From the NCBI GenBank assembly GCA_965221785.1, contig CBDCSR010000003.1:445059-477058 (forward strand): a stretch of 32,000 bases of DNA, read 5' to 3'. Below, one piece after another: positions 1,030 through 21,120 of the stretch (position 1 is the first letter of the stretch; each line of letters opens with the position of its first letter). Position numbers and translations under genes: made by a program. Below the pieces are notes generated by a model, which worked only from the letters and a program-made list of their open reading frames with translations, searched no databases and was not told the origin of the DNA. This DNA comes from Longimicrobiales bacterium. Lineage in GTDB: Bacteria; Gemmatimonadota; Gemmatimonadetes; Longimicrobiales; Gaopeijiaceae.

Positions 1030-1112
1030 CTGTCAAATAACGTGTCATCTTGCGAGAACAACTTCCATATCCTGTTGTGATATCGTATCTTGATCTGTCA
1101 CGCAACGTGTCA
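1030..1112 (+). promoter_or_regulatory. Two 18-bp direct repeats, CTGTCA-NNN-AACGTGTCA, in the low-GC leader of the Fic gene (candidate operator sites)
   Basis: CTGTCAAATAACGTGTCA at 1030-1047 and CTGTCACGCAACGTGTCA at 1095-1112, 15/18 identical, 65 bp centre to centre. The second copy ends 17 nt before the ATG at 1129. A TATAAT hexamer is at 1125-1130. Confidence 0.35.
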
Positions 1113-1128
1113 GATAGGATGCAATATA

Positions 1129-2325
1129 ATGGACTGGTCACGTTTCAGCTTCGAGTACCGCCTCGGCTCGAAGGGCTTCATGCCATTGCTAATCCGGATC
1201 GAAGGGCGAAAGGAGGCGGCGATGAGCTTGCTCCTTCCTTCCGACTGGAAGGAAAGGCTCGACCTCCTTAACCGAATCAGGACGATCCATGGCTCGACCG
1301 CGCTTGAAGGCAACCCTCTTTCAGAAACCCAGATTGGCCAATTCCTAAGGGGCAAGACAGGGCTCGATCCCATGAGCAGGGCCATGCGGCAGATTCAGAA
1401 CGCGGACGCTGCACAGGAATGGGTCAGGTCCCGATTCGGGCCCGACAAAGCGCCAATCAGTCTCGAAGACATCCTGCAGATGCACGAACTCATGACGAGG
1501 CTGTCCGACGAAGCCAACAACCTTCCAGGTCGCCTTCGCTCCCACGAAGTTCAGGTCGGTACGCCAGAGTTGGGCGGCATCCATGTCGGCGCGCCTTATG
1601 AGGATCTTCCCAAGCTCATGGCCGACTTCGTCTGTTTCGTGAACGCGTCCCAGCTCAAGATCGAACATCCCGTGGTCAGGGCGCTGCTCGCCCATCTCTT
1701 TCTCGTCACGATCCATCCGTTCGGGGATGGGAATGGCCGTGTCTCGCGACTGGTGGAGGCGGCCATTCTCTATGAGGGTGGATACAACGTCCACGGATTC
1801 TACGGGCTGTCCAACTACTTCTACCGCCACGGAGATGAGTACAAGCTGCGGCTGCAGGAGTGTCGGCGCGTCCAGCCGTTCGACATGGCGCCCTTCGTGG
1901 CATTCGGGCTGCACGGCTTCGAGTCCGAACTGCGGGGGATCAACAACTTCATCAAGACGAAACTGAACCGCCTGGTGTACCGCGACACCATCACCAATGC
2001 GCTCGCTCATCGCGTAAGCAAACGCCGCCAACTGCTCAATGTCCGCGAGTATCAGCTTCTTCGCTTCCTTCTGGAGGAAACCGAGCCGGAAGATCCGTTC
2101 TCGGAAGTTCCGTCCGAGAAGATCCTGCTGAGCGACCTGGTGAACTCGCCTTATGTGACAAGCGCCTATCAGGATGTGACGTGGAGGACATTCCGGCGGG
2201 AACTAACGCGGTTGGCCGAGCTTGGGTTCATCGTCTTCGATCATCTGCCCGAGTCAGGCGACTACACCGTCGAGATCGATTTCGGGGTCATTGAGAGGGA
2301 CTTCGACGAAATCGGGAGCGGCTAG
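1129..2325 (+). CDS. Fic family protein (class II, N-terminal inhibitory helix; AMPylase-type) with C-terminal winged-helix-like region
   Basis: Fic motif HPFGDGNGRVSR. Inhibitory motif S-x-x-x-E-G (STALEGN). The N-terminus MDWSRFSFEY resembles the usual W..F.Y start of this family. Alternative starts are 1090 (ORF-track start) and ATG 1222 (AGGAGG 6 nt upstream). GC is about 57%, clearly below the flanks. Confidence 0.85.
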   Translation: MDWSRFSFEYRLGSKGFMPLLIRIEGRKEAAMSLLLPSDWKERLDLLNRIRTIHGSTALEGNPLSETQIGQFLRGKTGLDPMSRAMRQIQNADAAQEWVRSRFGPDKAPISLEDILQMHELMTRLSDEANNLPGRLRSHEVQVGTPELGGIHVGAPYEDLPKLMADFVCFVNASQLKIEHPVVRALLAHLFLVTIHPFGDGNGRVSRLVEAAILYEGGYNVHGFYGLSNYFYRHGDEYKLRLQECRRVQPFDMAPFVAFGLHGFESELRGINNFIKTKLNRLVYRDTITNALAHRVSKRRQLLNVREYQLLRFLLEETEPEDPFSEVPSEKILLSDLVNSPYVTSAYQDVTWRTFRRELTRLAELGFIVFDHLPESGDYTVEIDFGVIERDFDEIGSG

Positions 2326-8400: not shown

Positions 8401-10671
8401 TTAGAGCCCCAACTCGTTCCAGGCCTCCATCCGTTCCAGCATCCTGGCGGCGGTTACCGAGTCGCCGCGCAGACCGGCTTCGCGGTAGAGGGCGAAATAG
8501 GCGAGGGCGTAGTATGTGGGAATCCCCAGGCTGCTGGGGTCGCGCCAGTAGTCCCATCCGTCGGGAAGGCCGCTCCGGTGCACGTACACCTCGTCCACCA
8601 GCGTGCGCGTGCGCTCGGTATCGACCCAGACTCCGACCCCCGACAAGCGGTTCGGGTCGCCGACCTGGGCGATTCCCTGGGTCTGGAGCGGCGCCGGGTC
8701 TCCGGGCCAGAGGCGATAGGCCACCCCCTGCCGGACGATGTACCTGCGCAGCCCCATGTCCTCCGGGGCTCCGACGGCGGAGGCGAAGTAAATGGGCCGG
8801 TCCTCGATGGAGTTGGCGATGAAGGACAGCGCAAACTGCATCCACGGCTGCATCTGGCGTCCTTGCGCGACCGTGGCCGTGACCGGGCCAAGGCGAAAAC
8901 GGCGATCCTCCGCCAGCGGCGCGACGCCGGTCACGACGACCCGTTCGATCATGTCGTCGGTCAACTCGGTGCTGACCACCGCTCGCGCCGGGGGCGAAAT
9001 CGGCTCGCGCAGGACCAGCGGCACCAGTCCCGCAGCCTGCGCCGAGGCCGGGTTGTCGGTGTACAGCGCTCCCGTGCCCACCGGCGTGTAGGCACGCTGG
9101 CAGAGGATGCGGGTCGGGTCCGCGTCCGGATCCTCGCCGGGCCCGCAGGGTCGGCTCAGGCCCCTCAGCTGCTTCACGTACCAGTCGGTGTTGAGGTACG
9201 ACGTCACTGCCACGACGACATCGCGCCGGATGCCCTCCACCTCCTGCAGGTACCAGAGCGGGAAGGTGTCGTTGTCGCCGTTGGTGAAGATGAGCGCGTA
9301 GGGTTCCACGCTCATGAGCAGATTGTAGGCCCAGTCGCGCGCGGAATAGTCGTCCGTCCGGCTCGCGCGCTGGAAGTTGAGGACCAGCGGCACCAGCGCC
9401 AGCAGGAGCACGGGCGAGGCCATCTTCATCGACCCCAGGTTTCTCGACAGCGACTTCCACAGGCCCGCGAGCCCGATCCCCGAGATGAGGCCCCAGACCG
9501 AGAAGCCGACGACGAAGAAGTAGTCGCGCTCGCGCACTTCCTTCTCGATCCCCTGGTCGGGGAAGGAATAGCCGAGCTTGAAGTTCAGGTAGTAGACCAG
9601 CCCGACGGAGAGGATGCCGAAAAGCGAGGCCAGATAGAGCCAGCTGGCACGGTCTTTCCGACAGTGCTCGCGCAGGCCGAGTGCGCCCAGCGCCAGGAAC
9701 AACAGCGTGAAGAGGAGCCGGCTGGGAGGAAACCGGTTGTCCTCGAAGGCCACGCCGCGCGCCCACTGCCAGTCGAAATACTGCATCCAGTTCCCGTACT
9801 GGGCGAAGAGCGGCGCCTGCCGCGGAACGAGCGGCGGCTTGGCGTACTGCTCCCGCTTGAGCGCCGACGACAGCTCCTCGCATCCCGCGTTGCCGTAGGT
9901 GGCGATGCTCACCAGCGCGTCGGAGACCCCTTCGCAGGTGGGCTGCGCTTCGTTGATGACCGGATCCAGCCCCGAGCGGATCGGCAGGAAGAGGTGGATG
10001 CTCAGCCCCAGGAGGACCGCAACCAGCGAGGTCGCGTAGAGGCGCGGGTTGAGCAGCGTGCGCGCGCGCACCGCGAGGATGAACAGGAAGAGGGACGGCA
10101 GCACCAGCAGCGCCATCAGGTGGTTGCCCACGGAGAGCGCCATGATGAACGCCATCAATACCAGCAGGTTGTCTTCCCTTCCCTTTCCGAGGTTTTCCTG
10201 CCAGCGGAAGGTGAGCCAGGTCAGGAGGGCGATGGTAAGGAGGGAGACCGTGTAGACCTTCTCGTTCACGTTGGACTGGTTCCAGACCGTGAACGCCGTC
10301 GCGCTGATCAGGACCGCCGCGCAGGCCCCCACCAGCCGGAAGCGCCGGTCGCGGGAGAAGTAGCGCAGGATGTGATGGACGACGAGGAACCAGAACCCGT
10401 GTGCGGCCGCGCTGACCGCCGCCGAAAAGAGATTGATGCGGACGGCGGTCGAGATCCCCAGGGGAGCCAGCAGAATGTCCCAGGCGCGGGCGAGCACGAC
10501 GAAGAGCGGGTTCCCCGGGGGATGCGGGATGCCGAGCATGTGCCCGGTGGCGATGTATTCGCTCGTGTCCCAGAACGCCGTGGTGGGAGCCACGGTCGCC
10601 GCGTAGAGGAGGAACACGGCCCCCGCCACCCCGGCCGCCCAGCGGTAGGGGGGTGTGGTGTTGTCGGCCAC
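8401..10671 (-). CDS. DUF2723 / TMEM260-like polytopic GT-C-fold glycosyltransferase
   Basis: The N-terminal FWDTSEYIATGHMLGIPHPPGNPLF matches the DUF2723/TMEM260 signature (..D.GE.I......G..HPPG.PLF). Many hydrophobic segments are followed by a large soluble C-terminal part. The GTG start at 10671 directly abuts the upstream TGA (TGAGTG). Confidence 0.85.
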   Translation of the reverse strand: MADNTTPPYRWAAGVAGAVFLLYAATVAPTTAFWDTSEYIATGHMLGIPHPPGNPLFVVLARAWDILLAPLGISTAVRINLFSAAVSAAAHGFWFLVVHHILRYFSRDRRFRLVGACAAVLISATAFTVWNQSNVNEKVYTVSLLTIALLTWLTFRWQENLGKGREDNLLVLMAFIMALSVGNHLMALLVLPSLFLFILAVRARTLLNPRLYATSLVAVLLGLSIHLFLPIRSGLDPVINEAQPTCEGVSDALVSIATYGNAGCEELSSALKREQYAKPPLVPRQAPLFAQYGNWMQYFDWQWARGVAFEDNRFPPSRLLFTLLFLALGALGLREHCRKDRASWLYLASLFGILSVGLVYYLNFKLGYSFPDQGIEKEVRERDYFFVVGFSVWGLISGIGLAGLWKSLSRNLGSMKMASPVLLLALVPLVLNFQRASRTDDYSARDWAYNLLMSVEPYALIFTNGDNDTFPLWYLQEVEGIRRDVVVAVTSYLNTDWYVKQLRGLSRPCGPGEDPDADPTRILCQRAYTPVGTGALYTDNPASAQAAGLVPLVLREPISPPARAVVSTELTDDMIERVVVTGVAPLAEDRRFRLGPVTATVAQGRQMQPWMQFALSFIANSIEDRPIYFASAVGAPEDMGLRRYIVRQGVAYRLWPGDPAPLQTQGIAQVGDPNRLSGVGVWVDTERTRTLVDEVYVHRSGLPDGWDYWRDPSSLGIPTYYALAYFALYREAGLRGDSVTAARMLERMEAWNELGL

Positions 10672-11856
10672 TCAGCTGGCTCCGGGAACGAGGGTGATGC
10701 CTCCGGCCTGTTTGCCTGTCTCCGCCATCCCGACGCGCTCGTAGGTTGCGAGGTCGATGACCTCGACGATGCCCGGCTGCCCCCCGATTCCTTCGATGGT
10801 GACGAAGGCGAAGCGGTTGTCCGAGGTCACGGCGACCCCGTGGGTAACCTCCTGGATGCTCTTGATCTTCGCCAGCATCTCGGCGGTGTCGAGATCCCAT
10901 ACCGCCAGGTGGCCGCTGCCCTTGAGGGTTGCGAGCAGGCGGGATCCGTCGCGGGTGAGAGCCAGGTTGTAGGGCGCGCCCTCGGCGGGGATGCGCCGGG
11001 CCACGCTCCAGGACTCGAGGTCCACCTGGACGATCTCGTTACCACGGTTGCAGGCCACGTAGACGAAGCGCCCGTCGCCGGAGAGGGTGGTCCAGGTCGG
11101 GGAGCAGGCGGCCATGCCGGAGCCGCCCATCGCACCGGCCATGTCACCGGTGGTTCCGCCGGCCGTCCCGCCACCGCTCATCCCCGCGCCGTGGGCGACC
11201 GGTTCGCCGACCGGCTCTCCCGTCACCAGGTTCAGCCGCCGGGTCACCTCCAGCGAGAAGGTGGACATCTCCACCAGCTGGTCGTCCATCATGCACGCCG
11301 AGTAGTTGTGCATGCCGTCCGGTGACATGCGCGACCCGTGCGGCATGGTGCAGGTCGTCACCTGCTCGATCTCGTACATCTCCTCGGTGTCCACCACCGA
11401 CACCGTGCTCGGGACGTGGTCGCCGTAGAAGTTCGAGTTGACCGCGAATGCCAGCACCCCGTCGGGGGTGAGCGAGACGGTCGCGGGGAAGAAGCCGAGT
11501 TCGGTGGCGGCCACCACGGTGTCCGGGCCGGTCTCGTACTTGAGCAGGTAGCCGTTCGGGAAGCCGTGCCCGAGGGTCAGGTACCAGTATTCGCCCGACG
11601 GGTCGAAGAACATCCCGTGCGGGCCCTCGATCTCCGCCGGCCAGCGGCCCACCCGGATGACCTTCTCCACCGAGAGCCCGCCTTCGGGCGTGAACTCGAG
11701 CACCGCGACCTCGTCCTCCGACTCCGCGGCCACGTATGCCCGGTAGGACTGGGCATGGGCCGGTTCGGGCGCGAAGGCGAGCACGGCCAGCAGCGCGGCG
11801 GCTGCGAGCCGGTGTGACGTGGTGCGGCGATGGCGCCGCGACAGGTCCTTCGTCAC
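10672..11856 (-). CDS. Secreted YVTN/YncE-like beta-propeller protein with Met/His/Gly-rich insertions
   Basis: This is only the C-terminal 394 codons of the 741-aa track ORF. The GTG at 11856 overlaps the upstream stop (GTGA). Signal peptide RLAAAALLAVLAFAPEPAHAQ. Repeated blades of the type SPDG..L.V.N...V.V.D. Confidence 0.75.
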   Translation of the reverse strand: MTKDLSRRHRRTTSHRLAAAALLAVLAFAPEPAHAQSYRAYVAAESEDEVAVLEFTPEGGLSVEKVIRVGRWPAEIEGPHGMFFDPSGEYWYLTLGHGFPNGYLLKYETGPDTVVAATELGFFPATVSLTPDGVLAFAVNSNFYGDHVPSTVSVVDTEEMYEIEQVTTCTMPHGSRMSPDGMHNYSACMMDDQLVEMSTFSLEVTRRLNLVTGEPVGEPVAHGAGMSGGGTAGGTTGDMAGAMGGSGMAACSPTWTTLSGDGRFVYVACNRGNEIVQVDLESWSVARRIPAEGAPYNLALTRDGSRLLATLKGSGHLAVWDLDTAEMLAKIKSIQEVTHGVAVTSDNRFAFVTIEGIGGQPGIVEVIDLATYERVGMAETGKQAGGITLVPGAS

Positions 11857-13838
11857 GGAACCAGCGTCCTCCTCGGCTGCAGCCTCACCGACCAGAGCCC
11901 TGAGTGGTGCTCGGCGATGAACAGGTGGCCCTTGTGGATCTGCGGGCCCCAGCTGAAGGGTGCGTTGGGCACGAAGGCGTCGGGGTCGTTGGCGGCGTAG
12001 TGCGCGATCTCTCGGCCCTGCAGGCCCAGGTTGCCCTTGAGTTCGCCGGAGATGTCGATGACGCGGGTGCCGCCGTTGTAGTAGGCCGCGTAGAGGCGGT
12101 CTCCGTCGATCCACATGTTGTGCGACCCGGCCTCCGGGATCTCGTAGCGCGCGACCTCCTCGGGGTTGTTGGGGTCGGTGAAGTCGACGACGTGGATGTA
12201 GCCGGCCATGCGCGGGGGCGTGCGCTCGGCGTCCAGGTCGTTGAAGCCGGGGCGGCCGATCTCGTCGCCCATGAAGATGTAGAAGCGTCCGGCCGGGCTC
12301 CAGTACGGGAAGGCCGCGTGGGTCGCCCCGCCGATGTCGGCGAAACTGGTCATGAGCACCGGGTTGGAGGGGCTGCCGCCCCGGTCGCCGCCGCCCACGT
12401 CGATGACCGCCACCCCGTCTGCCCAGTTGGAGGTGTAGGCGATCCCGTCCACGATCCAGATGTCGTGAATGCCGTGGCCGGGGGTGTCCAGCTCGAAGCG
12501 GCCCACGCGGTGCGGGCTGGTCGGATCCTCGATGTTGATCACGTCGAAGCGGACCCCGTTGTTCACGGCGTACACGTGGTTGTCGTACACGAAGACATTG
12601 TGGACGCCGCCGGTCAGCTCGTCGTCGAAGGTGGAGAGGATCTCGACGTTGCGCGGGTCGGCGCAGTCCACGATGACGATGCCGTTGCGCCGGTTGGAGG
12701 CGCCCTCGCGCGAGATCACGCAGACGCGGCCGTCCTCGGACACCTTCACGTCGTTGGTGGTGCGAGCGTCCACCACCAGCGAGTCGGTCATGACCGGGGC
12801 GGCCGGGTCGGTCACGTCCCACCAGTAGGTCGCGCCGTAGGCGCCCCAGGTGCCGGTGATGGCGTAGTCGCGGCCGTCGATGCCCTCCCACACCCACAGG
12901 TCGGAGGTGGGAACATCGCGCACGGCGCCCTGGCCGATGAACTCCACGGTCTCGCTCACGTTGCGCGGCTCGATGCGGATGGTCTGGTTGGCCGAGTGGC
13001 CGGGCACGGTGGCCACGACCGTGTACACCCCCGGCCGGTATGCCACGAAGCGGCCCTGCTGGTCGATTTCGGCGGGCGCGAAGTCCGCCGTGGCCTCGAT
13101 GTCCGCGTAGGGCACGACCGAGAAGGTCACGGGAATGTCGCTGGCCTCGTCGCTCGCCATGGGCGCGGCTTCGAAGCGGATCACGTCGCCGGTGCGGCCC
13201 ACCTCCTGGCTCCCCGACAGCGCAATCGAGGTGACCGGGCTCGCGACCACGTCGTAGACGACCTCTCCCGCGACCTCCTCGGCGGCCGCGGTCAGAGTGA
13301 CCCGGCCGGGCGCGTGCGCGCTGAACACGCCGAAGCGGTCGACACTGGCCACCGATTCGTCGCTGGTGCTCCAGCCCAGCTCCACGTCGCCGCGGACGTC
13401 GTCGACCGCGTCGTACACGGTGGCCCGGTGGCGCATCACCGTGCCCACGTAGAAGCGCCCGTTCTCGCCCGGCGAGATCTCGACCCGGTCGAGGGCCGGA
13501 TACGGCACCGAGACGGTCATCTCCGCGCGGATGTTGCGGTCGGTGGCGACCATCAGGGTCACCAGGTAGTCACCCCCGTACACGGCCTCGACCGCGCCGG
13601 TGGTTCTGTTCACGTCCAGACGCCCGCGCGCACCCCGGGCCATGTACATGATCGGGGCATCGACGGCGTTCCCGTCGGCATCGACGACGCTGGCCGTGAT
13701 CTGTCCGCTCTCACCGGGCTGGAGGGTGAGCACCCCTTCCTCCACGACGATGCGCGCAGGTTCCTGGGCGGCGAGGGACGACGCGCCGAGCGCGAGCAGG
13801 GCGAGGACGCAAAGGACGCTGGCAGGACGGATCTTCAT
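11853..13838 (-). CDS. Secreted protein with N-terminal bacterial Ig-like (Big_2-type) domains and C-terminal LVIVD-repeat beta-propeller
   Basis: ATG at 13838 with GGAGG 7 nt upstream. Signal MKIRPASVLCVLALLALGASSLAAQ. Big_2-like segments include LQPGESGQITASVVDADGN and WSTSDESVASVDRFGVFSAHAPGRVTLTA. LVIVD-type repeats include GIVIVDCADPRNVE, FDVINIEDPTSP, GVAVIDVGG, YIHVVDFTDPNNPE and GTRVIDISG. Confidence 0.8.
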   Translation of the reverse strand: MKIRPASVLCVLALLALGASSLAAQEPARIVVEEGVLTLQPGESGQITASVVDADGNAVDAPIMYMARGARGRLDVNRTTGAVEAVYGGDYLVTLMVATDRNIRAEMTVSVPYPALDRVEISPGENGRFYVGTVMRHRATVYDAVDDVRGDVELGWSTSDESVASVDRFGVFSAHAPGRVTLTAAAEEVAGEVVYDVVASPVTSIALSGSQEVGRTGDVIRFEAAPMASDEASDIPVTFSVVPYADIEATADFAPAEIDQQGRFVAYRPGVYTVVATVPGHSANQTIRIEPRNVSETVEFIGQGAVRDVPTSDLWVWEGIDGRDYAITGTWGAYGATYWWDVTDPAAPVMTDSLVVDARTTNDVKVSEDGRVCVISREGASNRRNGIVIVDCADPRNVEILSTFDDELTGGVHNVFVYDNHVYAVNNGVRFDVINIEDPTSPHRVGRFELDTPGHGIHDIWIVDGIAYTSNWADGVAVIDVGGGDRGGSPSNPVLMTSFADIGGATHAAFPYWSPAGRFYIFMGDEIGRPGFNDLDAERTPPRMAGYIHVVDFTDPNNPEEVARYEIPEAGSHNMWIDGDRLYAAYYNGGTRVIDISGELKGNLGLQGREIAHYAANDPDAFVPNAPFSWGPQIHKGHLFIAEHHSGLWSVRLQPRRTLVP

Positions 13839-13887
13839 CTCGGTTCCTCCATGCAACGGATCGATTGTCGGGCCTGAAAAAGTCGAA

Positions 13888-13901
13888 AAACCCGCGGGTT
13901 T
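13888..13901. promoter_or_regulatory. Perfect 14-bp palindrome AAACCCGCGGGTTT about 50 nt upstream of the LVIVD operon start
   Basis: Read directly. It lies in the 375-nt divergent intergenic region between 13838 (-) and 14214 (+). Confidence 0.25.
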
Positions 13902-14115
13902 GCGCAAATGGGACGATCGGGATCCGGCCCCTCATGGAATCAGCGGGCAAGCCTGCGGGCGGAAGATCCACGCTCGTGAAACGGTCGCCATCGACGAAGC
14001 CGGGGACCGGCTGTGTTGGATCCGCCTGACCCGGTTCGGCGACGATTGGCTCCTGATTCGCTCCGATGGCCGCGACGTGTCGCCCCCCTTGCACGCTGTG
14101 CGACAGATGCAATAA
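13900..14115 (+). CDS. Speculative small ORF (71 aa, TTG start) upstream of the methyltransferase gene
   Basis: The frame of track ORF 13600..14115 reads protein-like here (ETVAIDEAGDRLCWIRLTRFGDDWLLIRSDGRDVS). My hand count gives GC3 of about 78% against about 62% local GC. There is no ATG/GTG and no clear RBS. Confidence 0.2.
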   Translation: MRKWDDRDPAPHGISGQACGRKIHARETVAIDEAGDRLCWIRLTRFGDDWLLIRSDGRDVSPPLHAVRQMQ

Positions 14116-14213
14116 CGTCATGCACACAAGCCATTTGATCGCGATATAGTCTCGATACTGAATGAGTTGTGTTTTTGGCGCGTTCCATCGTGCAAACGCG
14201 ACCACATGATGCG

Positions 14214-15248
14214 ATGACTGATACGCCCGCCGCAAAACAATCGAACCCCCGTTCCCTCGCGGATCTTGCGGCGGATGAAGTGAAATCAGTGGTCGATCGG
14301 TACACCGGGATCCACAATGCCGGTTCGGAGCGCAGAAAAGAGCACTATCGGTCGTTCGTCAAACACTACTACGACCTGGTGACCGATTTCTACGAGTTCG
14401 GCTGGGGGCGGTCCTTTCACTTTGCCCCCCGGCGCCGGGGCGAGAGCTTCAAGGCGTCGCTGCTGAGGCACCAGCGTTTTCTCGCCGACCGGTTGGCCCT
14501 GAAGCCGGGCATGCGGGTGCTCGATGTAGGATGCGGTGTGGGGGGACCGATGGCCGCGCTTGCCCGCTACGCCGGGGCCAGCTTCGTCGGGCTCAACAAC
14601 AACGCCTACCAGATCGAGCGCGCGAAAGCGCACACCCGGGACGTACAGTCCCTGTGCCGTTTCATACACGGCGACTTCATGCAGATCCCCGACGGTGACG
14701 ACCGCTACGATGCCGCGATCGCGATCGAGTCCATGCCGCACGCACCCGACAAGACGGCGGCGTTCCGGGAACTCTTCCGCGTCTTGCGGCCGGGAGCCTG
14801 CCTGGCGGGCTACGACTGGTGCCTCACCGGGGATTTCGATCCCCGGAACGCAGAGCACATGCGGATCAAGGAAGCAATCGTGAAGGGCAATGCGCTTCCG
14901 TATATCGTCTGCACGCCGGAGATCGCCGCCGCGCTGCGCACGGCGGGGTTCGAACTCGTCGAATCCGGGGACCGAGCCTCCGCATCGGACCCGACAACGC
15001 CCTGGTACCGTGCTCTGCAGGGTCGCGACCTCAGCCTCAGGAGCATCCCGCGCACACCCATTGGACGCGCCCTGACGAATCGGGTGTTGAAGGTCGGCGA
15101 GAAGTTGCGGATTTTCCCTGAAGGGACCGCCGCGGTCAGCTCCCTGTTGAACAGGACGGCGGACGCGCTGGTCGCGAGTGGCAAGGCCGGAATCTTCACC
15201 CCGATGCTCTACTTTCTGGCCCGCAAGCCCGGGCGGTCGGGAGACTGA
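14214..15248 (+). CDS. Sterol 24-C-methyltransferase (Erg6/SMT)-like SAM-dependent methyltransferase
   Basis: YYDLVTDFYEFGWGRSFHF (SMT region I), LDVGCGVGGP (SAM motif I), IESMPHAP, YDWCLT, and C-terminal GIFTPMLYFLARKP (compare yeast Erg6 ..LFTPMMLFVARKP, recalled from memory). Start taken at ATG 14214; the ORF-track start is GTG 14169. Confidence 0.85.
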   Translation: MTDTPAAKQSNPRSLADLAADEVKSVVDRYTGIHNAGSERRKEHYRSFVKHYYDLVTDFYEFGWGRSFHFAPRRRGESFKASLLRHQRFLADRLALKPGMRVLDVGCGVGGPMAALARYAGASFVGLNNNAYQIERAKAHTRDVQSLCRFIHGDFMQIPDGDDRYDAAIAIESMPHAPDKTAAFRELFRVLRPGACLAGYDWCLTGDFDPRNAEHMRIKEAIVKGNALPYIVCTPEIAAALRTAGFELVESGDRASASDPTTPWYRALQGRDLSLRSIPRTPIGRALTNRVLKVGEKLRIFPEGTAAVSSLLNRTADALVASGKAGIFTPMLYFLARKPGRSGD

Positions 15249-15258
15249 ATCCCGAAAC

Positions 15259-16173
15259 CTAGAAATTCACCACCAGCGCCATGGTCAGCACCCGGTCCGA
15301 CTTGTCCAGCGGGATGGGCACCTTGCCCGTGGACTCACCCTGCAGGCTCGTCAGCGGGACGTCGACCAGCGACGGGCGGTTGTCGAACAGGTACTGGAAC
15401 TTGGCCTGCAGCCCGAAGTGCTCGCTCATCGAGACGCCCAGCGAGGTCACCCAGTCCGCGCGCAGGTCCGCCGGGTTGAAGCCGTTCTCGTCCACCACCA
15501 GGGTGCTCTTCAACTCAGTGTTGTCGGTCAGCTGGATCTCGTATTCGCCGGAGACCTGGAGTCCGATGAAGGTGTTGGCGGCGTCGGGGTCGGGGACCAC
15601 ATCGTCCTGCACGGTAAGGGTGAGCCCGTACGAGCTGCGCAGCTGGTGCACGTCGTCCTCCATCCACCGCGTCGACATGCCGGCGACCAGCACGTAGCGG
15701 CCATCGATGCCGGTGAAGGTGTTGCGGGCCCATCCCAACTGGCCGAACACCGACGACCGCTCGGAGAACTCGCGGTCGCCGCGAAAGCGGATGAGGTAGT
15801 TCTCGGCGGAAACCCGGGTCTCGCTCTCCTCTTCGACCCGATAGTCGTCGGAGGTGCCGATGGCCGAGCGCTTGAAGCGGGTGGTGTTCGTGCGCAGCGC
15901 TCCGAACTCCAGTTTGGTCTCGGTCCGCTCCCACTCCGTGATCAGCTCGTTGGCGAGCCCGAACGTGGTCGATTCCGTGTTGCCACGGGTCTGGATGAAG
16001 CTGAACTCGCTGGAGTTGGACCACTCCGGGGGGAGGGGGATCTGCGGGAGCTGCGCGCTCGCCTCGACGCCGGTGCCCAGGAGAAGCGCGAAGGCCAGGG
16101 AGAAAGAAGCGACGGCGCCCGAGGCGCGCGCCTCCGACGGGTGCCTGGCAGCCAGGCGCTCTCGTGCTACCAA
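15259..16173 (-). CDS. DUF481 (YdiY-like) outer-membrane beta-barrel protein
   Basis: RGNTESTT, LTDNTELKS, MSEHFGLQAKFQYLFDNRPS and a terminal Phe (..VVNF) resemble E. coli YdiY. Signal AVASFSLAFALLLGTGVEASAQ. The start is uncertain: TTG 16173 is chosen because the track start 16278 would overlap the rhodanese gene by 112 nt. Confidence 0.7.
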   Translation of the reverse strand: MVARERLAARHPSEARASGAVASFSLAFALLLGTGVEASAQLPQIPLPPEWSNSSEFSFIQTRGNTESTTFGLANELITEWERTETKLEFGALRTNTTRFKRSAIGTSDDYRVEEESETRVSAENYLIRFRGDREFSERSSVFGQLGWARNTFTGIDGRYVLVAGMSTRWMEDDVHQLRSSYGLTLTVQDDVVPDPDAANTFIGLQVSGEYEIQLTDNTELKSTLVVDENGFNPADLRADWVTSLGVSMSEHFGLQAKFQYLFDNRPSLVDVPLTSLQGESTGKVPIPLDKSDRVLTMALVVNF

Positions 16174-16613
16174 ACGCCCTCGTATCCGTCCGCAGCCAGA
16201 TTCCACCTGGGCCCGAAGACGTGGACCCGCTTCGTCGGCGACGGGCCATCGGTGAGCTCGCCGCCCTCGTGTGTCCACGCAAGCAGGCTTCCCTTCAGGT
16301 TCAGCACCGGAACGCCCCTCTTTCCCATCCGGCGGGCGTACCTTGAACTGCGCGCTCCCAGAGTGCAGTAGGCGACCACGGTACAGTCCCCCAGATCGTC
16401 GAGCCGGTTCTCGAATTCCTCAGGGGTGATGGCGCCGGGCAGCGTGGACACCGCCCGCTCGGCGGGAGAGCGGACATCGACGAGAATGGTGTCGTCGGCG
16501 GTCAGGCGCTCGCGCAGCGCCGCCGGACTGATGGTCCTCACATCCGGAAAGCGGCGGCCAACCCGCGAAACCATCCCCTCCAGCGTGCGCCGCCGTTCGT
16601 CCTGCGATGCCAT
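16167..16613 (-). CDS. Rhodanese-like domain protein (sulfurtransferase)
   Basis: LVDVRSPAE..G.LPGA and the active-site loop YCTLGARSS (C-x-x-G-x-R-S). ATG at 16613 with GGGGGAA upstream; the track start 16631 is TTG. Confidence 0.8.
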   Translation of the reverse strand: MASQDERRRTLEGMVSRVGRRFPDVRTISPAALRERLTADDTILVDVRSPAERAVSTLPGAITPEEFENRLDDLGDCTVVAYCTLGARSSRYARRMGKRGVPVLNLKGSLLAWTHEGGELTDGPSPTKRVHVFGPRWNLAADGYEGVW

Positions 16614-17568: not shown

Positions 17569-19608
17569 TCAGCTCACGGGGCGGTCGGCGTTCATGACCC
17601 AGCGGTCGTACCAGGCCAGGTAGCGCTCGTAGCGGTCCTTCTGGTAGCTGGGGATGCGCAGGCCGTGGCTCTGGCCCGGGTAGACCACGAGCTGGGTGGG
17701 CACGCCCCGCCGCCGCAGCGCCTGGTAGAGCTGCTCGGAGTTGAGGATGGGCACGTTCCAGTCGTCCTCGCCGCCCATGATGAGGGTCGGGGTGGTGACT
17801 TCGTGCACCTTGTTGAAGGGGCTGATGCGCTCCCAGTTGTCGCGGTTGTCGCCCTCCCACGGAAGCCCCAGCTCGGCCTCCCACTGCCGCTGGTAGTGGT
17901 CGTGGCCGTAGTTGGCGATGTAAAGCACTTCGCTCGCCCCGGTGATGGCGCCCTCGAAGCGGTCGGTCTGGGTGATGACGTAATTGGTGAGGATGCCGCC
18001 GTAGGACCAGCCGCCCACGCCAAGGCGGTCGGGGTCGGTCCAGCCCTGCTCGATGGCGTAGTCGATACCCGCCATGACGTCCTTGAAGTCGGGGTTGCCC
18101 CAGTCCGCCCAAAGCGCCGCGGAGAAGTCCTGTCCGTAGCCCGACGAGCCGCGCGGGTTGGTGCGCACGACCACGTAGCCGCGGGCCGCGAAGAGCTGCG
18201 ACTCGAACTGGAAGGAGTGGCTGTATTGGGAGACCGGGCCCCCGTGGATGCGCAGGATCGTTGGATAGGCCCGGCCTTCCTCGTAGTCGGGCGGGAAGGT
18301 GACAAACCCCTCGACTTCGATTCCGCCTTCGGAGGGGAACTGGATGTTGCGGGTCTCGGCGATGTTGACGGTGGCGAGGAAGTCGTCGTTGTGGCCCGTG
18401 ATGCGGCGGAGCGAGGCTTCGCCGCCCGCGTAGTCCTCCACGGTGTAGACCTCGCCTGGGCGGTCGAGGTAGTTGACGCGGGCCGCAAAGGTGTCGCCGT
18501 TCCAGTCGAAGCCCGACGCGGAAAGCCCCCCGGACACCGGCCGCTCCAGCTCCGATCCGTCCGGACGAACTCGGGCGATGTGGTTCTCGGACGAATCCTC
18601 GAGCCCGAACCAGATCCATTCGCCGTCCGGGGAGAAGCGGGGCGAGCGCACATTGCGGTCCAGGTCGGTGGTGAGCAGCCGGGGCTCGCCGCCATCCGCG
18701 GAGACCACGGCGAGGTGCGTGGTGGCATACCAGATCAGGTCGGGGCGGATGCCGGTCGTGTAGGTGATCCGGCGTCCGTCCGGGCTCCACTGCGGCGAGC
18801 CGTCGGAGCCGGGGTTGGTGGTGACCTGCCGAGGGGAGTCGGTGGGTTCCTCCAGCTCCGCGGAGACCACCCAGATGTCGCTGTTCGCGTTCAGGTCCGG
18901 GTCTTCCGTGCGGTTGGAGACGAAGGCGATCTGCGTTCCGTCGGGGCTCCAGACGCCCAGCGATTCGTTCCAGCGCCCCGTGGTGAGCTGCCGTAACTCT
19001 CTGGCATCGATCTTGTAGACATACAGGTGCGTCATGCGTGAGCCGGTCAGGTAGCCGGCTCCGTCCCGCTTGAACTGGATGCGGTCGATGACCCAGGGAT
19101 CCTGCGGAGCGTTGGGCTTCGCATCCTCGTCCTCTTCCTCGGCATCGCGGATGGTGAGGAGGAGACGGGTGCCGTCGGGGGACCAGCGGTATCCGCCGAC
19201 GCCCTGCTCGACGTCCGTAAGGGGAAAGGCTTCGCCGCCGCGCCGGTCCAGCGCCCACACCTGGGTCGCGTCTCCGTCGCGAGCCGCGGTGAAGGTGAGG
19301 TACCGGCCGTCCGGACTCCAGGCCGGAGAGCCGGCCGACTGGTTGTCGCGCGTAAGCGGGACCGGGTCGCCGCCCGCGACCGGCGCCATGTAGACGCGGG
19401 TATAGGAGCGTTCATCCTCCAGGGAGGTGCGAGAAACCGTGTACGCGACCCAGTCGCCCTCCGGGCTGACCACGGGGGAGCCGACGTTCTCCAGTTCGAA
19501 GAGATCGTCGACCGTGATGTTGCGCCGCTCCTGCGCGAGGGCTGCCGGGGGCGCGAGCGCCGCCGCGGACAGCGCGAAGCCGAGGGCCGTCGTTACGAGA
19601 GCCTTCAT
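17569..19608 (-). CDS. S9 family serine peptidase (prolyl oligopeptidase / acylaminoacyl-peptidase type) with N-terminal beta-propeller
   Basis: Nucleophile elbow GGWSYGG, GEDDWNVP and GQSHGL (Ser/Asp/His). WD40-like PD40 repeats (SPDG..IAF). ATG at 19608 with AGGAG upstream. Signal MKALVTTALGFALSAAALAPPAALAQ. Confidence 0.85.
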   Translation of the reverse strand: MKALVTTALGFALSAAALAPPAALAQERRNITVDDLFELENVGSPVVSPEGDWVAYTVSRTSLEDERSYTRVYMAPVAGGDPVPLTRDNQSAGSPAWSPDGRYLTFTAARDGDATQVWALDRRGGEAFPLTDVEQGVGGYRWSPDGTRLLLTIRDAEEEDEDAKPNAPQDPWVIDRIQFKRDGAGYLTGSRMTHLYVYKIDARELRQLTTGRWNESLGVWSPDGTQIAFVSNRTEDPDLNANSDIWVVSAELEEPTDSPRQVTTNPGSDGSPQWSPDGRRITYTTGIRPDLIWYATTHLAVVSADGGEPRLLTTDLDRNVRSPRFSPDGEWIWFGLEDSSENHIARVRPDGSELERPVSGGLSASGFDWNGDTFAARVNYLDRPGEVYTVEDYAGGEASLRRITGHNDDFLATVNIAETRNIQFPSEGGIEVEGFVTFPPDYEEGRAYPTILRIHGGPVSQYSHSFQFESQLFAARGYVVVRTNPRGSSGYGQDFSAALWADWGNPDFKDVMAGIDYAIEQGWTDPDRLGVGGWSYGGILTNYVITQTDRFEGAITGASEVLYIANYGHDHYQRQWEAELGLPWEGDNRDNWERISPFNKVHEVTTPTLIMGGEDDWNVPILNSEQLYQALRRRGVPTQLVVYPGQSHGLRIPSYQKDRYERYLAWYDRWVMNADRPVS

Positions 19609-19785
19609 GATGAACTCCTGAACCGATGAGAAATGATCCTGACTGAGAGGGGGCGAAGATGAGTGATGGAACCGAGGAAATCCGGGCGCACGCAAGAATA
19701 ACAGCGAGGGAACGGGGGGCGCGACCCGAATCGGCCGCGCGCCCGCGGCGCGTGGAGCTAGCGATGATGACGGGGAGATCGGGAG

Positions 19786-19803
19786 TGTCCACCATGGTGG
19801 ACA
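19786..19803. promoter_or_regulatory. Perfect 18-bp palindrome TGTCCACCATGGTGGACA (candidate dimeric-regulator operator)
   Basis: Read directly. It lies 42 nt upstream of the lipoprotein start at 19845, in the divergent region shared with the S9 peptidase gene. Confidence 0.4.
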
Positions 19804-19844
19804 GTGCCGCACTCGGGGGTGCGCGCCGGGTGACGTTGCTGTTC

Positions 19845-20250: not shown

Positions 20251-21120
20251 TCAGGCCGAGTTCCTCGAGGAGGACTCGACGAGGGAAAGGTTGTACTGCG
20301 TCGGTGACGTCGGTGCCGAGGGCGAATCGGGTGGGAGATCATCTCGGAGAATCCCCAACAATGCGTTCGGCGTCTTCGGTTCCGGCCATGGCTTGGCACC
20401 ACGGTCAAGCAGGCCCTCGAGGCCCTTGGAGCGCTTGCCGTTGGCGCGAACGTAGACCGACACGAATCTCAGCTTGGCCAGTTGCTCGGTTGCACCCGTC
20501 CAAGTGCCCCCATGCCCATGGTCCGAGTTGACCACAAGGGCGGTGTCCGACAGCGCGTAGATGAGCTTGTTACGCTGCATGGCATGGCCCACCAGGAAGC
20601 GGGCCGTGGGATCGTAAGGGCAGACCAGAACGAGCTGTCCGTCGAGCAGAGCATTCCGGTTACGCCTGTTCAGGACGGCGCGTTCGAGACCGTGCGCCAG
20701 GATGCCGACGGACCGGCCTCCCGCCTCCAACGCGCCACTCATTGCGGCTTGATCGATTCCGCGCGCTCCCCCGGATATGATCGCCTTCCTGGCTTCAGCG
20801 CTGAGGCGACCCACGTCTTCCGTGTACTCGATGAGGTCTTCTTCGACCTTCCTGGAACCGACCACCGCCAGCCCTCCCTCGTCCAGCATCGTGCGATCCC
20901 CGCACCCGTAGAGGACCGGCGGGGCGTTTCCTCGCATCCGGGCCTTCAGTCTCCGGGGATAGTCTGGATCGGCCCGGGTAACCACCCACAGGGCGCGGGC
21001 CCGCCATCGTTCGATCGCCTGCGCCAAGAGAAATCCGCGGCCAAGAAGCCGGTGAATTCGCTCGGCCTCCAGGCCAGCGAGGGATTCCCGCACCGTTTCC
21101 CGAGCGTCATTTCCGAGCAA
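20251..21120 (-). CDS. DprA/Smf-like DNA-processing protein (Rossmann-like domain), apparently missing its N-terminus through a frameshift
   Basis: [31 protein letters not shown] and [10 protein letters not shown] are DprA motifs. The track start 21120 is TTG. The same frame is open and homologous-looking up to 21273 ([16 protein letters not shown]) but has no start codon. Confidence 0.75.

Follow-up and report, generated by a model that had tools for sequence, protein, structure and literature searches.

A solitary gene predicted to encode a sterol C-24 methyltransferase in a putative sponge-associated symbiont of the Gemmatimonadota

The window, by which we mean the whole 32-kb stretch of DNA that was analyzed, contains a gene of the sterol C-24 methyltransferase (SMT, or Erg6) type, the location of which is given in Table 1 together with those of its motifs and neighbors. 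A single open reading frame is listed for this position; it runs from 14169 to 15248 on the forward strand and begins with GTG, giving a product of 359 aa. Translation from the first in-frame ATG, at 14214, yields 344 aa and ends at a TGA stop (15246-15248). Homologs are 343-344 aa long with the N-terminal consensus MxRTPAKRS..SRSLADL, and because the 344-aa version fits both this length and this N terminus, 14214-15248 is the right gene model. A homolog search found one database protein, P0001, that is 100% identical to the product.

The gene is monocistronic, being divergent with respect to its upstream neighbor and convergent with the gene downstream. The intergenic region on its 5' side (13908-14213) comprises 306 bp with a GC content of 59.8% and includes a weak promoter match 64 bp 5' of the ATG, one such site being found where 0.2 would be expected. 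The GC content of the gene is ~3 points lower than that of its flanks. An earlier note on this DNA had named a DUF481 protein and a group of surface proteins as the neighbors and had reported no other sterol gene nearby, and both statements were borne out. Pfam scans of the likely genes and tblastn with six cluster proteins found no further sterol gene in the 32-kb window, which reaches 14 kb to the 5' side and 17 kb to the 3' side of the SMT gene, and SMO/OSC, CYP51, ERG24, SdmA, and SdmB show no linkage to it in this interval. Pfam scans also found no glycosyltransferase or other natural-product genes near the SMT gene in the window, and no tRNA or Rfam features were found there. The DUF481 gene was considered as a functional partner and rejected, as it adjoins the SMT gene only here and in two other genomes (L001 and L002) and is transcribed convergently with it. 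A 390-aa gene that abuts the SMT gene at other loci of the Gemmatimonadota was likewise rejected as a partner, being an AAA_14/DUF4143 ATPase (L003, L005, and L007); the corresponding open reading frame of L004 encodes a different protein.

Table 1. Positions of the predicted SMT gene, its motifs and domains, and the neighboring features in the window
Feature	Position	Strand	Details and basis
LVIVD/Big_2 and YNCE-propeller surface protein genes	10672-13907	-	5' neighbors of the SMT gene; Pfam
Weak sigma-70-like promoter match, TGCACA-18-TATAGT	14121..14150	+	Tentative; consensus match only
Predicted sterol C-24 methyltransferase (SMT/Erg6-type) CDS	14214..15248	+	344 aa and TGA stop; ORF translation, Pfam, homologs
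Sterol-binding Region I, YEFGWGRSFHF	14391..14423	+	Residues 60-70; Y81, F83, and G84-F91 in yeast numbering
Class-I SAM methyltransferase domain (Methyltransf_11)	14520..14801	+	Residues 103-196
Region II, LDVGCGVGGP	14520-14549	+	Residues 103-112; fits the DxGxGxxGP pattern
Region III, IESMPHAP	14724-14747	+	Residues 171-178; holds the equivalent of invariant E195
YDWCLT motif	14811-14828	+	Residues 200-205
Codon for Asn226, yeast position 249	14889..14891	+	Alignment to Erg6 ruler
Sterol_MT_C domain (PF08498)	15051..15230	+	Residues 280-339; ends in GIFTPMLYFLARKP
C-terminal motif GIFTPMLYFLARKP	15189-15230	+	Residues 326-339
DUF481 gene	15259-16278	-	3' neighbor of the SMT gene; Pfam

The earlier note had recognized the product as a bacterial homolog of Erg6 with an intact sterol methyltransferase C terminus, and this assignment to the family holds. 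The Sterol_MT_C domain scores 74.3 bits against a gathering cutoff of 21.7 (E = 8.6e-21), the methyltransferase domain is matched by Methyltransf_11 (E = 4.5e-18) and also by Methyltransf_25, and all five of the motifs that had been quoted are present in the 344-aa translation. Weak Pfam matches to CMAS and UbiE span the methyltransferase core. NCBIfam, which has no SMT equivalog, returned only generic methyltransferase matches far below their cutoffs, with CFA-synthase and related equivalogs at 42-60 bits against cutoffs of 155-650. An AlphaFold2 model built on a deeper alignment predicts a class-I methyltransferase fold with confidence (pLDDT 92.7, pTM 0.90), where a shallow alignment, all rows of which were at least 72% identical, gave a pLDDT of 40. 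The folds in the PDB that lie nearest to this model are small-molecule and terpenoid methyltransferases (SpnF, MitM, TleD, GPP C-methyltransferase, and CFA synthase; TM ~0.53-0.65), which match it over the generic core only, at 15-26% identity; that these are not SMTs is explained by the PDB holding no true SMT structure with which to compare it.

Residues were placed by alignment to the sequence of Saccharomyces cerevisiae Erg6, which agrees with a recent preprint at 29 of 29 numbered positions (25 conserved residues together with positions 81, 83, 204, and 249). Over its whole length, the window SMT is ~40-41% identical to yeast Erg6 and has the same two-domain architecture, Regions I-IV, and C-terminal motif; it differs from Erg6 in having Phe rather than Tyr at position 83, Asn rather than Asp at 249, and an N terminus shorter by ~20 residues. 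The numbering of the region motifs and the set of 25 residues that all functional SMTs share were taken from the preprint (10.64898/2025.12.19.695621), and all 25 are present in the window SMT, which also has Y81/F83/N249. Among the 81 members of its clade that were examined, position 249 is Asp in 50, Asn in 28, Thr in 2, and Ser in 1; none of the 81 has Gly. The last point bears on product length, as the preprint reports Gly249 to be necessary, if not sufficient, for the formation of 24-isopropyl (C30) sterols, a G249N mutant having lost its C30 products while keeping C28 and C29 sterols, and phenylalanine at position 83, in Region I, to favor repeated methylation (10.64898/2025.12.19.695621). 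The propylating enzymes Chl_SMT (Chlamydiae) and Ap_sym_SMT (Aplysina aerophoba) belong to the same family and have F83 in common with the window SMT, which lacks their Gly249. Because Asn and not Gly occupies this position, C30 24-isopropyl sterols are not expected from the window SMT; Y81/F83/N249 predicts C28 and perhaps C29 products.

The SMT homolog search returned 3,129 matches at E <= 1e-10, the best 120 of the 3,129 all being at least 72% identical. The window SMT falls inside a tight clade, with identities of at least 70%, drawn from MAGs of at least eight bacterial phyla, which are sponge- or coral-associated in every case with checkable provenance; the next full-length relatives outside it are at most 59% identical. 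The view of the earlier note that bacterial SMTs have rarely been reported is thus out of date: 7,966 homologs were found in JGI metagenomes by Brown et al. (2023, PMC10070321), who detected activity in 20 of the 24 bacterial SMTs they tested, and Kelly et al. (2022, PMC9531527) describe steroid gene clusters, with enrichment of ERG6, in 115 of 537 MAGs of Ircinia sponges that span 10 phyla, Gemmatimonadota among them. A neighbor-joining tree of 81 SMTs and Erg6 places the window SMT within the clade associated with sterol clusters, separate from Erg6, and makes the Gemmatimonadota SMTs monophyletic except for that of L043. A full sterol cluster, consisting of an SMO/OSC fusion, CYP51, C14-reductase, SdmA, and SdmB, adjoins the SMT gene at 52 of the 81 loci examined, and an intact OSC is present at a further 6, the cluster domains being confirmed by Pfam; within 10 kb around the gene, SMT stands alone at 15. 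The whole cluster is retained in Ca. Palauibacter (L006), also of the Gemmatimonadota. The window SMT belongs to this "type 1" clade, which travels with a horizontally transferred sterol cluster of sponge and coral symbionts.

Earlier publications have described the sterol system of this clade (Kelly 2022, Brown 2023, and a 2020 report on the Melophlus msb cluster). The Ircinia clusters (CSGs; PMC9531527) and the msb cluster (PMC7074536) represent the same gene system as the clade of the window SMT, and the study of Kelly et al., centered on an ERG24-CYP51-LSS core, had already described transfer across phyla, purifying selection, and genes that are sometimes scattered (PMC9531527). The solitary SMT locus of the Gemmatimonadota, a prediction of product from individual residues, and the truncated cyclase call considered below are absent from the descriptions of the CSGs and msb.

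Two enzymes of the clade can be equated with tested proteins on the basis of gene order and identities to Erg6. The SMT of L025 (L025:10001-11035), from a Nitrospirales coral symbiont, is 75% identical to the window SMT over its full length and shares with it Y81/F83/N249 and all 25 functional residues. [quoted passage not shown] (IMG gene 2682229274), and the second SMT on the same contig has 35.63% identity to Erg6, exactly the value they give. This enzyme converted desmosterol to (epi)codisterol (Brown et al. 2023, PMC10070321). Its gene adjoins sdmB, sdmA, C14-reductase, CYP51, and an SMO/OSC fusion, whereas that of the window is solitary and of the Gemmatimonadota. The second, from the gammaproteobacterium Ca. 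Porisulfidus TsSOB (L076), is 70% identical, also has N249, and adjoins an SMO/OSC fusion and DHCR24-like and desaturase-like genes. It corresponds to "Theonella swinhoei-associated Chromatiales sp. 1 of 2" (IMG 2690455922), and the SMT of that cluster is reported to be functional (Brown et al. 2023, PMC10070321). The nearest tested ortholog of the window SMT is only 75% identical to it. The earlier note had left the substrate open. With the full pathway adjoining 52 of 81 loci and orthologs at 75 and 70% identity methylating desmosterol, the substrate is less open than that, and the question for this genome narrows to whether the sterol is self-made or scavenged.

Synteny is conserved between the window and its nearest relatives, the MAGs L001 and L002, which both come from the Ircinia study of Kelly et al. 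(PMC9531527) and in which the SMT gene is solitary too, with no sterol cluster genes adjoining. Neighboring genes are 93-98% identical to their counterparts in these MAGs, rhodanese is 85% identical to that of L002, and the SMT is 90% identical. This is strong, if indirect, evidence that the DNA derives from a sponge-associated symbiont of the Gemmatimonadota very close to the two MAGs. The SMT gene is under purifying selection, with dN/dS of 0.17-0.22 against L001 and L002, compared with 0.04-0.14 for most syntenic neighbors and up to 0.21 for rhodanese. At 90% amino acid identity and a ratio of ~0.2, it is more diverged than most of its neighbors, and constraint on it is therefore somewhat relaxed. 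Recent acquisition at this locus was considered and rejected, since dS for the gene is similar to that of the syntenic neighbors. Orphan SMT genes are also under purifying selection (omega 0.12-0.33).

We consider it likely, judging from the sequence, that the product of the window gene is a functional S-adenosylmethionine-dependent sterol C-24 methyltransferase. Some caution comes from the bacterial SMTs found to be inactive in vitro, 4 of 24 in the work of Brown et al. (PMC10070321) and 11 in total when the preprint (10.64898/2025.12.19.695621) is included, some with no obvious sequence defect. In the ancestral state, the SMT gene would have been part of the horizontally transferred SMO/OSC-CYP51-C14-reductase-SdmA-SdmB cluster of sponge and coral symbionts. 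In the sublineage of the Gemmatimonadota that includes the window, L001, and L002, the cluster would have been broken up, leaving the SMT gene to be transcribed by itself, flanked by an LVIVD/Big_2 surface protein gene and the DUF481 gene. The enzyme would transfer the methyl group of SAM to C-24 of the side chain of a delta-24 sterol, such as desmosterol or zymosterol-like intermediates, to give 24-methyl or 24-methylene (C28) sterols, and a second methylation may lead to C29. The mechanism of methyl transfer is drawn from knowledge of the family and from the tested orthologs, and we infer from the evidence above the activity, the chain length of the product, and the source of the substrate; what the analysis demonstrates directly is the family and clade of the enzyme, its genomic context, the conservation of its residues, and purifying selection on its gene. 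The sterol may be a product of pathway genes scattered over other parts of the chromosome, or it may be taken up from the sponge host or neighboring symbionts.

The gene call P0307, an SMO/OSC fragment, seems to come from another part of the chromosome that carries the window SMT gene. Situated on a contig of 2,545,104 bp, a length that matches exactly that of the contig with the identical SMT P0001, it covers 508 of ~1125 aa, is identical to the intact P0129 at 500 of its 508 residues, and is an N-terminal fragment that ends just inside the cyclase domain; no C-terminal fragment is present in its protein cluster, where other split genes show both halves. Among the ten closest CYP51 clusters opened, no member lies on this contig. 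In the close relative L081, the intact SMO/OSC ortholog is also solitary.

It is possible, if doubtful, that a working oxidosqualene cyclase has been lost and that the SMT methylates sterols obtained from the sponge host or neighboring symbionts. P0307 is the only SMO/OSC trace seen on what appears to be the same chromosome; independent decay of the cyclase alongside a retained SMT is seen in L065 (a 170-aa remnant, the other genes being intact), L030, and L041; and the SMT genes that stand alone are still maintained by selection. Brown et al. put forward the same idea for an SMT of Chlamydiae without other sterol genes (PMC10070321). However, the truncation of P0307 may be an artefact of assembly or gene calling, or a frameshift with the remainder still encoded, and no sterol uptake system was identified. 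Furthermore, as dispersal of sterol genes is documented for such genomes (Kelly 2022, PMC9531527; L081), an SMT that is alone within 10 kb says little about the genome as a whole. That the cyclase was lost or truncated here and independently in the Alphaproteobacteria L030, L041, and L065, the SMT being kept to methylate sterols made by the host or neighbors, we regard as unlikely.

Methylation of sterols at C-24 is also to be weighed against a role in tailoring a specialized triterpenoid, such as a sarasinoside-like norlanostane saponin aglycone, rather than membrane sterols, which appears improbable. Of public sequences, the Melophlus msb cluster (MT026193.1) matched the Ircinia steroid clusters best; its authors tie it to the sarasinoside aglycone and propose that its SMT, MsbF, could aid the formation of methoxylated congeners (PMC7074536), but that assignment is itself hypothetical. 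Orthologs in the clade C-methylate desmosterol at C-24 in vitro, the residues of Regions I-IV typical of C-24 SMTs are all present, and the neighborhood has no glycosyltransferase or other natural-product genes.

It is highly improbable that the gene is a decaying relic of a fragmented cluster, its expression or function gone. Its separation from the cluster, its lower GC content, its lesser conservation relative to most neighbors, and the truncated cyclase call would fit such a relic, but the gene has an uninterrupted reading frame of canonical length with every functional residue in place, dN/dS is far below neutrality, the position of the gene is conserved in three genomes, and the fold is predicted with confidence. 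The least probable reading, that of a methyltransferase acting on a non-sterol isoprenoid or lipid (of the squalene/botryococcene or GPP type, or a fatty-acyl modifier) and merely resembling SMTs, is suggested by the nearest solved structures, the CMAS and UbiE matches, and the lack of sterol genes in the window, but is countered by structural similarity confined to the generic core, the intact Sterol_MT_C domain and Regions I-IV, the absence of any NCBIfam equivalog near its cutoff, and a clade that is physically linked, in the majority of genomes, to OSC, CYP51, and ERG24 and includes enzymes shown by assay to act on sterols.

The 24-alkyl steranes serve as biomarkers of eukaryotes and sponges, and their interpretation is affected by any bacterial pathway that leads to 24-alkyl sterols. 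The probable sterol methyltransferase described here is one more example from the Gemmatimonadota of a documented and partly tested symbiont clade, and alone it changes little. What could matter is that an SMT has been kept under selection after its separation from, and perhaps the loss of, a cyclase. If this is true, then some symbionts modify sterols that are made by others, the side-chain chemistry of sponges would be harder to assign to host, symbiont, or both, and genome surveys that require an OSC would undercount bacterial sterol alkylation. There would then be a division of labor within the holobiont that contributes to the pool of 24-alkyl sterols attributed to sponges and, hence, to the sterane biomarkers.

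The SMT gene lies within a single open reading frame; translated from the first in-frame ATG (14214), its product agrees with its homologs in length (343-344 residues) and in N terminus (consensus MxRTPAKRS..SRSLADL). That agreement marks 14214 as the right start, and the coordinates assigned in the earlier note, 14214-15248, stand. All five motifs that it had picked out are present, and its reading of the C terminus is borne out by the Pfam model Sterol_MT_C (74.3 bits against a cutoff of 21.7, E = 8.6e-21); Methyltransf_11/25 also matched, and no NCBIfam equivalog came near its cutoff. An AlphaFold2 model built on a deeper alignment is a confident class-I methyltransferase (pLDDT 92.7). Neither sequence nor fold searches found a true SMT among solved structures, the closest being only generic small-molecule/terpenoid methyltransferases (TM 0.53-0.65, identity 15-26%). 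The identification as a real sterol C-24 methyltransferase gene is correct.

Features of the window and of loci from related metagenome-assembled genomes (MAGs; L numbers)
Feature	Position	Strand	Detail
ORF spanning SMT	14169..15248	+
SMT	14214-15248	+	344 aa; TGA stop 15246-15248
Five SMT motifs	14391-14423, 14520-14549, 14724-14747, 14811-14828, 15189-15230	+
Sigma-70-like match	14121-14150		weak; in spacer 5' of SMT
Fic/DOC-domain protein	1090-2325	+	GC 0.57 vs ~0.68; GC3 0.74
TMEM260-like glycosyltransferase, YNCE-type propeller, LVIVD/Big_2 protein	8401-13907	-	Pfam; upstream of SMT
DUF481, rhodanese, formyltransferase (all minus strand)	downstream of SMT		Pfam
S9 prolyl-oligopeptidase	17569-19812	-	Pfam; downstream of SMT
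DprA/SLOG-like gene	20251-21120	-
SMO remnant	L065:11117-11620		170 aa
OSC and CYP51 fragments	L030:11111-11828		OSC remnant 69 aa
OSC remnant	L041:11136-11276		47 aa
Divergent ERG4/ERG24-family reductases	L003:18924-20126; L008:15455-16834		~32% identical to cluster C14-reductase
KshA-like Rieske oxygenase	L025:5763-6788	-
Amine-oxidase-type flavoprotein	L025:8239-10089	-

A protein search with the window SMT returned 3,129 matches at E <= 1e-10, the best 120 of which are all at least 72% identical; one of them (P0001), from a 2,545,104-bp contig, is 100% identical. A scan of GTDB species genomes gave 269 relatives, and the best 80 of these, all from MAGs and 70-90% identical, span Gemmatimonadota (including Ca. 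Palauibacter), Nitrospirales, Alpha- and Gammaproteobacteria (including Ca. Porisulfidus), Binatia, Acidobacteriota, Thermodesulfobacteriota, Nitrospinaceae and Opitutales. Every MAG with checkable provenance came from a sponge or coral: the jk18x series is the Ircinia set of Kelly et al., Plut_88904 is the coral-reef Nitrospira of Brown et al., and TsSOB is a Theonella symbiont. We infer the same origin for the remainder. When the library is clustered at 50% identity, the clade as a whole falls into about one cluster, and the next full-length relatives outside it are at most 59% identical; in that library 384 representatives reach E <= 1e-30.

The window SMT belongs to a published and partly characterised symbiont sterol system. 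"Clusters of steroid genes" have been reported across 10 phyla, Gemmatimonadota among them, in 115 of 537 Ircinia MAGs, along with purifying selection, HGT and ERG6 enrichment (Kelly et al. 2022, PMC9531527), and the msb cluster of Melophlus (2020, PMC7074536), in which msbF is the SMT, is the same system. Symbiont clusters in the supplementary data of Brown et al. (2023, PMC10070321) comprise SMT, a squalene monooxygenase/oxidosqualene cyclase (SMO/OSC) fusion, CYP51, C14-reductase, sdmA and sdmB; 20 of the 24 bacterial SMTs tested there were active. The same gene order, each domain backed by Pfam, is seen in L025 and L076. Identities to yeast Erg6 match the published table exactly for the second SMT of L025 (35.63%) and closely for its SMT1 (39.5% versus 38.81%) and the L076 SMT (41.9% versus 41.57%). 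Together, gene order and identities equate the L025 SMT with "Nitrospira coral reef 1 of 2", a tested enzyme that converts desmosterol to (epi)codisterol (PMC10070321); the L076 SMT is the one reported to be functional from the cluster of the Theonella Chromatiales MAG. The window SMT shares 75% identity with the former and 70% with the latter. In the coral Nitrospirales cluster (L025), the two SMT genes flank a Rieske oxygenase and a flavoprotein, possible extra sterol-tailoring enzymes. The Palauibacterales ecogenomics paper makes no mention of sterols.

Residues that control product length have been mapped in a preprint (Brown et al. 2025, 10.64898/2025.12.19.695621). Positions were numbered on a yeast Erg6 sequence that agreed with the preprint at 29 of 29 positions compared (the 25 conserved residues it lists plus 81, 83, 204 and 249). 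The window SMT retains 25/25 residues conserved in functional SMTs and carries Y81, F83 and N249. Throughout the clade (n = 81) position 81 is always Y and 83 always F, and position 249 is D in 50 members, N in 28, T in 2, S in 1 and G in none. F83 promotes repeated methylation, G249 is needed for 24-isopropyl products, and a G249N mutant kept C28 and C29 (10.64898/2025.12.19.695621). From these residues, the window enzyme is predicted to methylate C-24 to give C28 and possibly C29 products, with no C30.

Within the window, real frames were picked by GC3 and then scanned with Pfam. The earlier note saw no other sterol gene here, and neither Pfam nor tblastn with six cluster proteins found one in the 32 kb; no tRNA or Rfam feature was found either. 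The SMT is divergent to its upstream gene, across a 306-bp spacer of 59.8% GC, and convergent with DUF481, and thus forms its own transcription unit. The TMEM260-like protein O-mannosyltransferase homolog, directly downstream of two beta-propeller surface-protein genes, is with them 94-98% conserved in L001 and L002, the closest loci, from Ircinia sponge MAGs; the three could make up a symbiont module for glycosylating surface proteins. Composition suggests that the low-GC Fic/DOC patch, short of which the L001 and L002 loci end, is a recently acquired island. Tblastn found neither the S9 peptidase gene nor the DprA/SLOG-like gene in L001 or L002, which are syntenic otherwise; where the peptidase would lie, L001 has a different ORF of 785 aa. 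This suggests that genes were replaced or inserted locally.

A Palauibacter SMO/OSC probe gave 743 matches, whose cluster memberships were then opened. One member of the cluster of P0129 (1125 aa) is P0307, a 508-aa protein identical to P0129 at 500 of 508 residues; its contig measures 2,545,104 bp, exactly as long as that bearing the window-identical SMT. From this equality we infer that the window chromosome carries an SMO/OSC locus elsewhere, with a truncated gene call. P0307 ends just inside the cyclase domain (508 of ~1125 aa), and no C-terminal fragment from this contig appears in the cluster, where other split genes show both halves; the truncation may reflect a pseudogene, a frameshift or an error of assembly. 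In a close relative (L081) the intact SMO/OSC gene is also solitary. A CYP51 probe found no member on the 2,545,104-bp contig within the ten closest clusters. Steroid genes are "often scattered around the bacterial chromosomes" (PMC9531527). The OSC probe also turned up P0130 (1509 aa) and P0167 (1461 aa), from outside the window, single ORFs joining squalene monooxygenase, oxidosqualene cyclase and a C-terminal SMT domain. The 11 proteins of the 90% cluster, five of them 1509 aa long, come from gammaproteobacterial MAGs (NCBI, ENA and JGI assemblies). In the fused SMT domain position 81 is N (FYNFGWG) and Q replaces the otherwise invariant E195 (IQAMCHAP), so the domain may be inactive or functionally changed.

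Among 81 loci, the window included, a full cluster adjoins the SMT in 52; the OSC is intact with the cluster incomplete in the fetched locus in six and partial or a remnant in five (one merely a contig end); three have other sterol genes only, and in 15, including the window, the SMT stands alone within ~10 kb. Among Gemmatimonadota loci, L006 has an intact cluster, and parts of the cluster lie nearby in L003 (CYP51 and an ERG4/ERG24 paralog), L007 (C14-reductase), L008 (ERG4/ERG24 paralog) and L068 (~44% of OSC matched); the remaining loci have no cluster genes within 10 kb of the SMT. The divergent ERG4/ERG24 reductase, which two Gemmatimonadota chromosomes (L003, L008) carry at 5-9 kb from the SMT, may reduce the side chain at C24(28) or be some other sterol reductase. 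An AAA_14/DUF4143 ATPase (L003, L005, L007) or an ImmA/IrrE-type gene (L004) adjoins the SMT in several Gemmatimonadota loci; such genes are typical of variable or mobile regions.

In a neighbor-joining tree, Gemmatimonadota SMTs form one clade except L043, the window, L001 and L002 form a tight subclade, and other classes are mostly coherent with few members misplaced. Cross-phylum SMT dS is just 0.64-0.80, not saturated, which fits recent HGT. SMT GC follows flank GC (r = 0.80, slope 0.6), lying ~3 points under the flanks in Gemmatimonadota (0.645 versus 0.678 in the window, with a visible local dip). The window shares synteny with L001 and L002, and SMT dS against them (0.22-0.30) resembles that of neighbors (0.12-0.26, one outlier 0.36); within this subclade, therefore, the solitary SMT has been passed down vertically. 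The gene is under constraint, somewhat less than typical neighbors: identity is 90% with omega 0.17-0.22, against 93-98% and 0.04-0.14 for neighbor proteins, 85-93% and 0.21 for the rhodanese, and 86-88% and 0.26 for DUF481.

The modestly new elements are the conserved solitary SMT locus of this Gemmatimonadota sublineage, the residue-based product prediction and the apparent cyclase truncation on the same chromosome. Elsewhere, SMO/OSC has decayed independently beside an intact SMT in L065 (where CYP51, C14-reductase, SdmA and SdmB are also intact), L030 and L041, and all three SMTs keep the 25 key residues. Omega is 0.12-0.33 for SMTs in orphan or decayed contexts versus 0.06-0.28 for intact-cluster pairs. 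The decay loci and these omega values support, without proving, the notion that the SMT has a value independent of de novo sterol synthesis.
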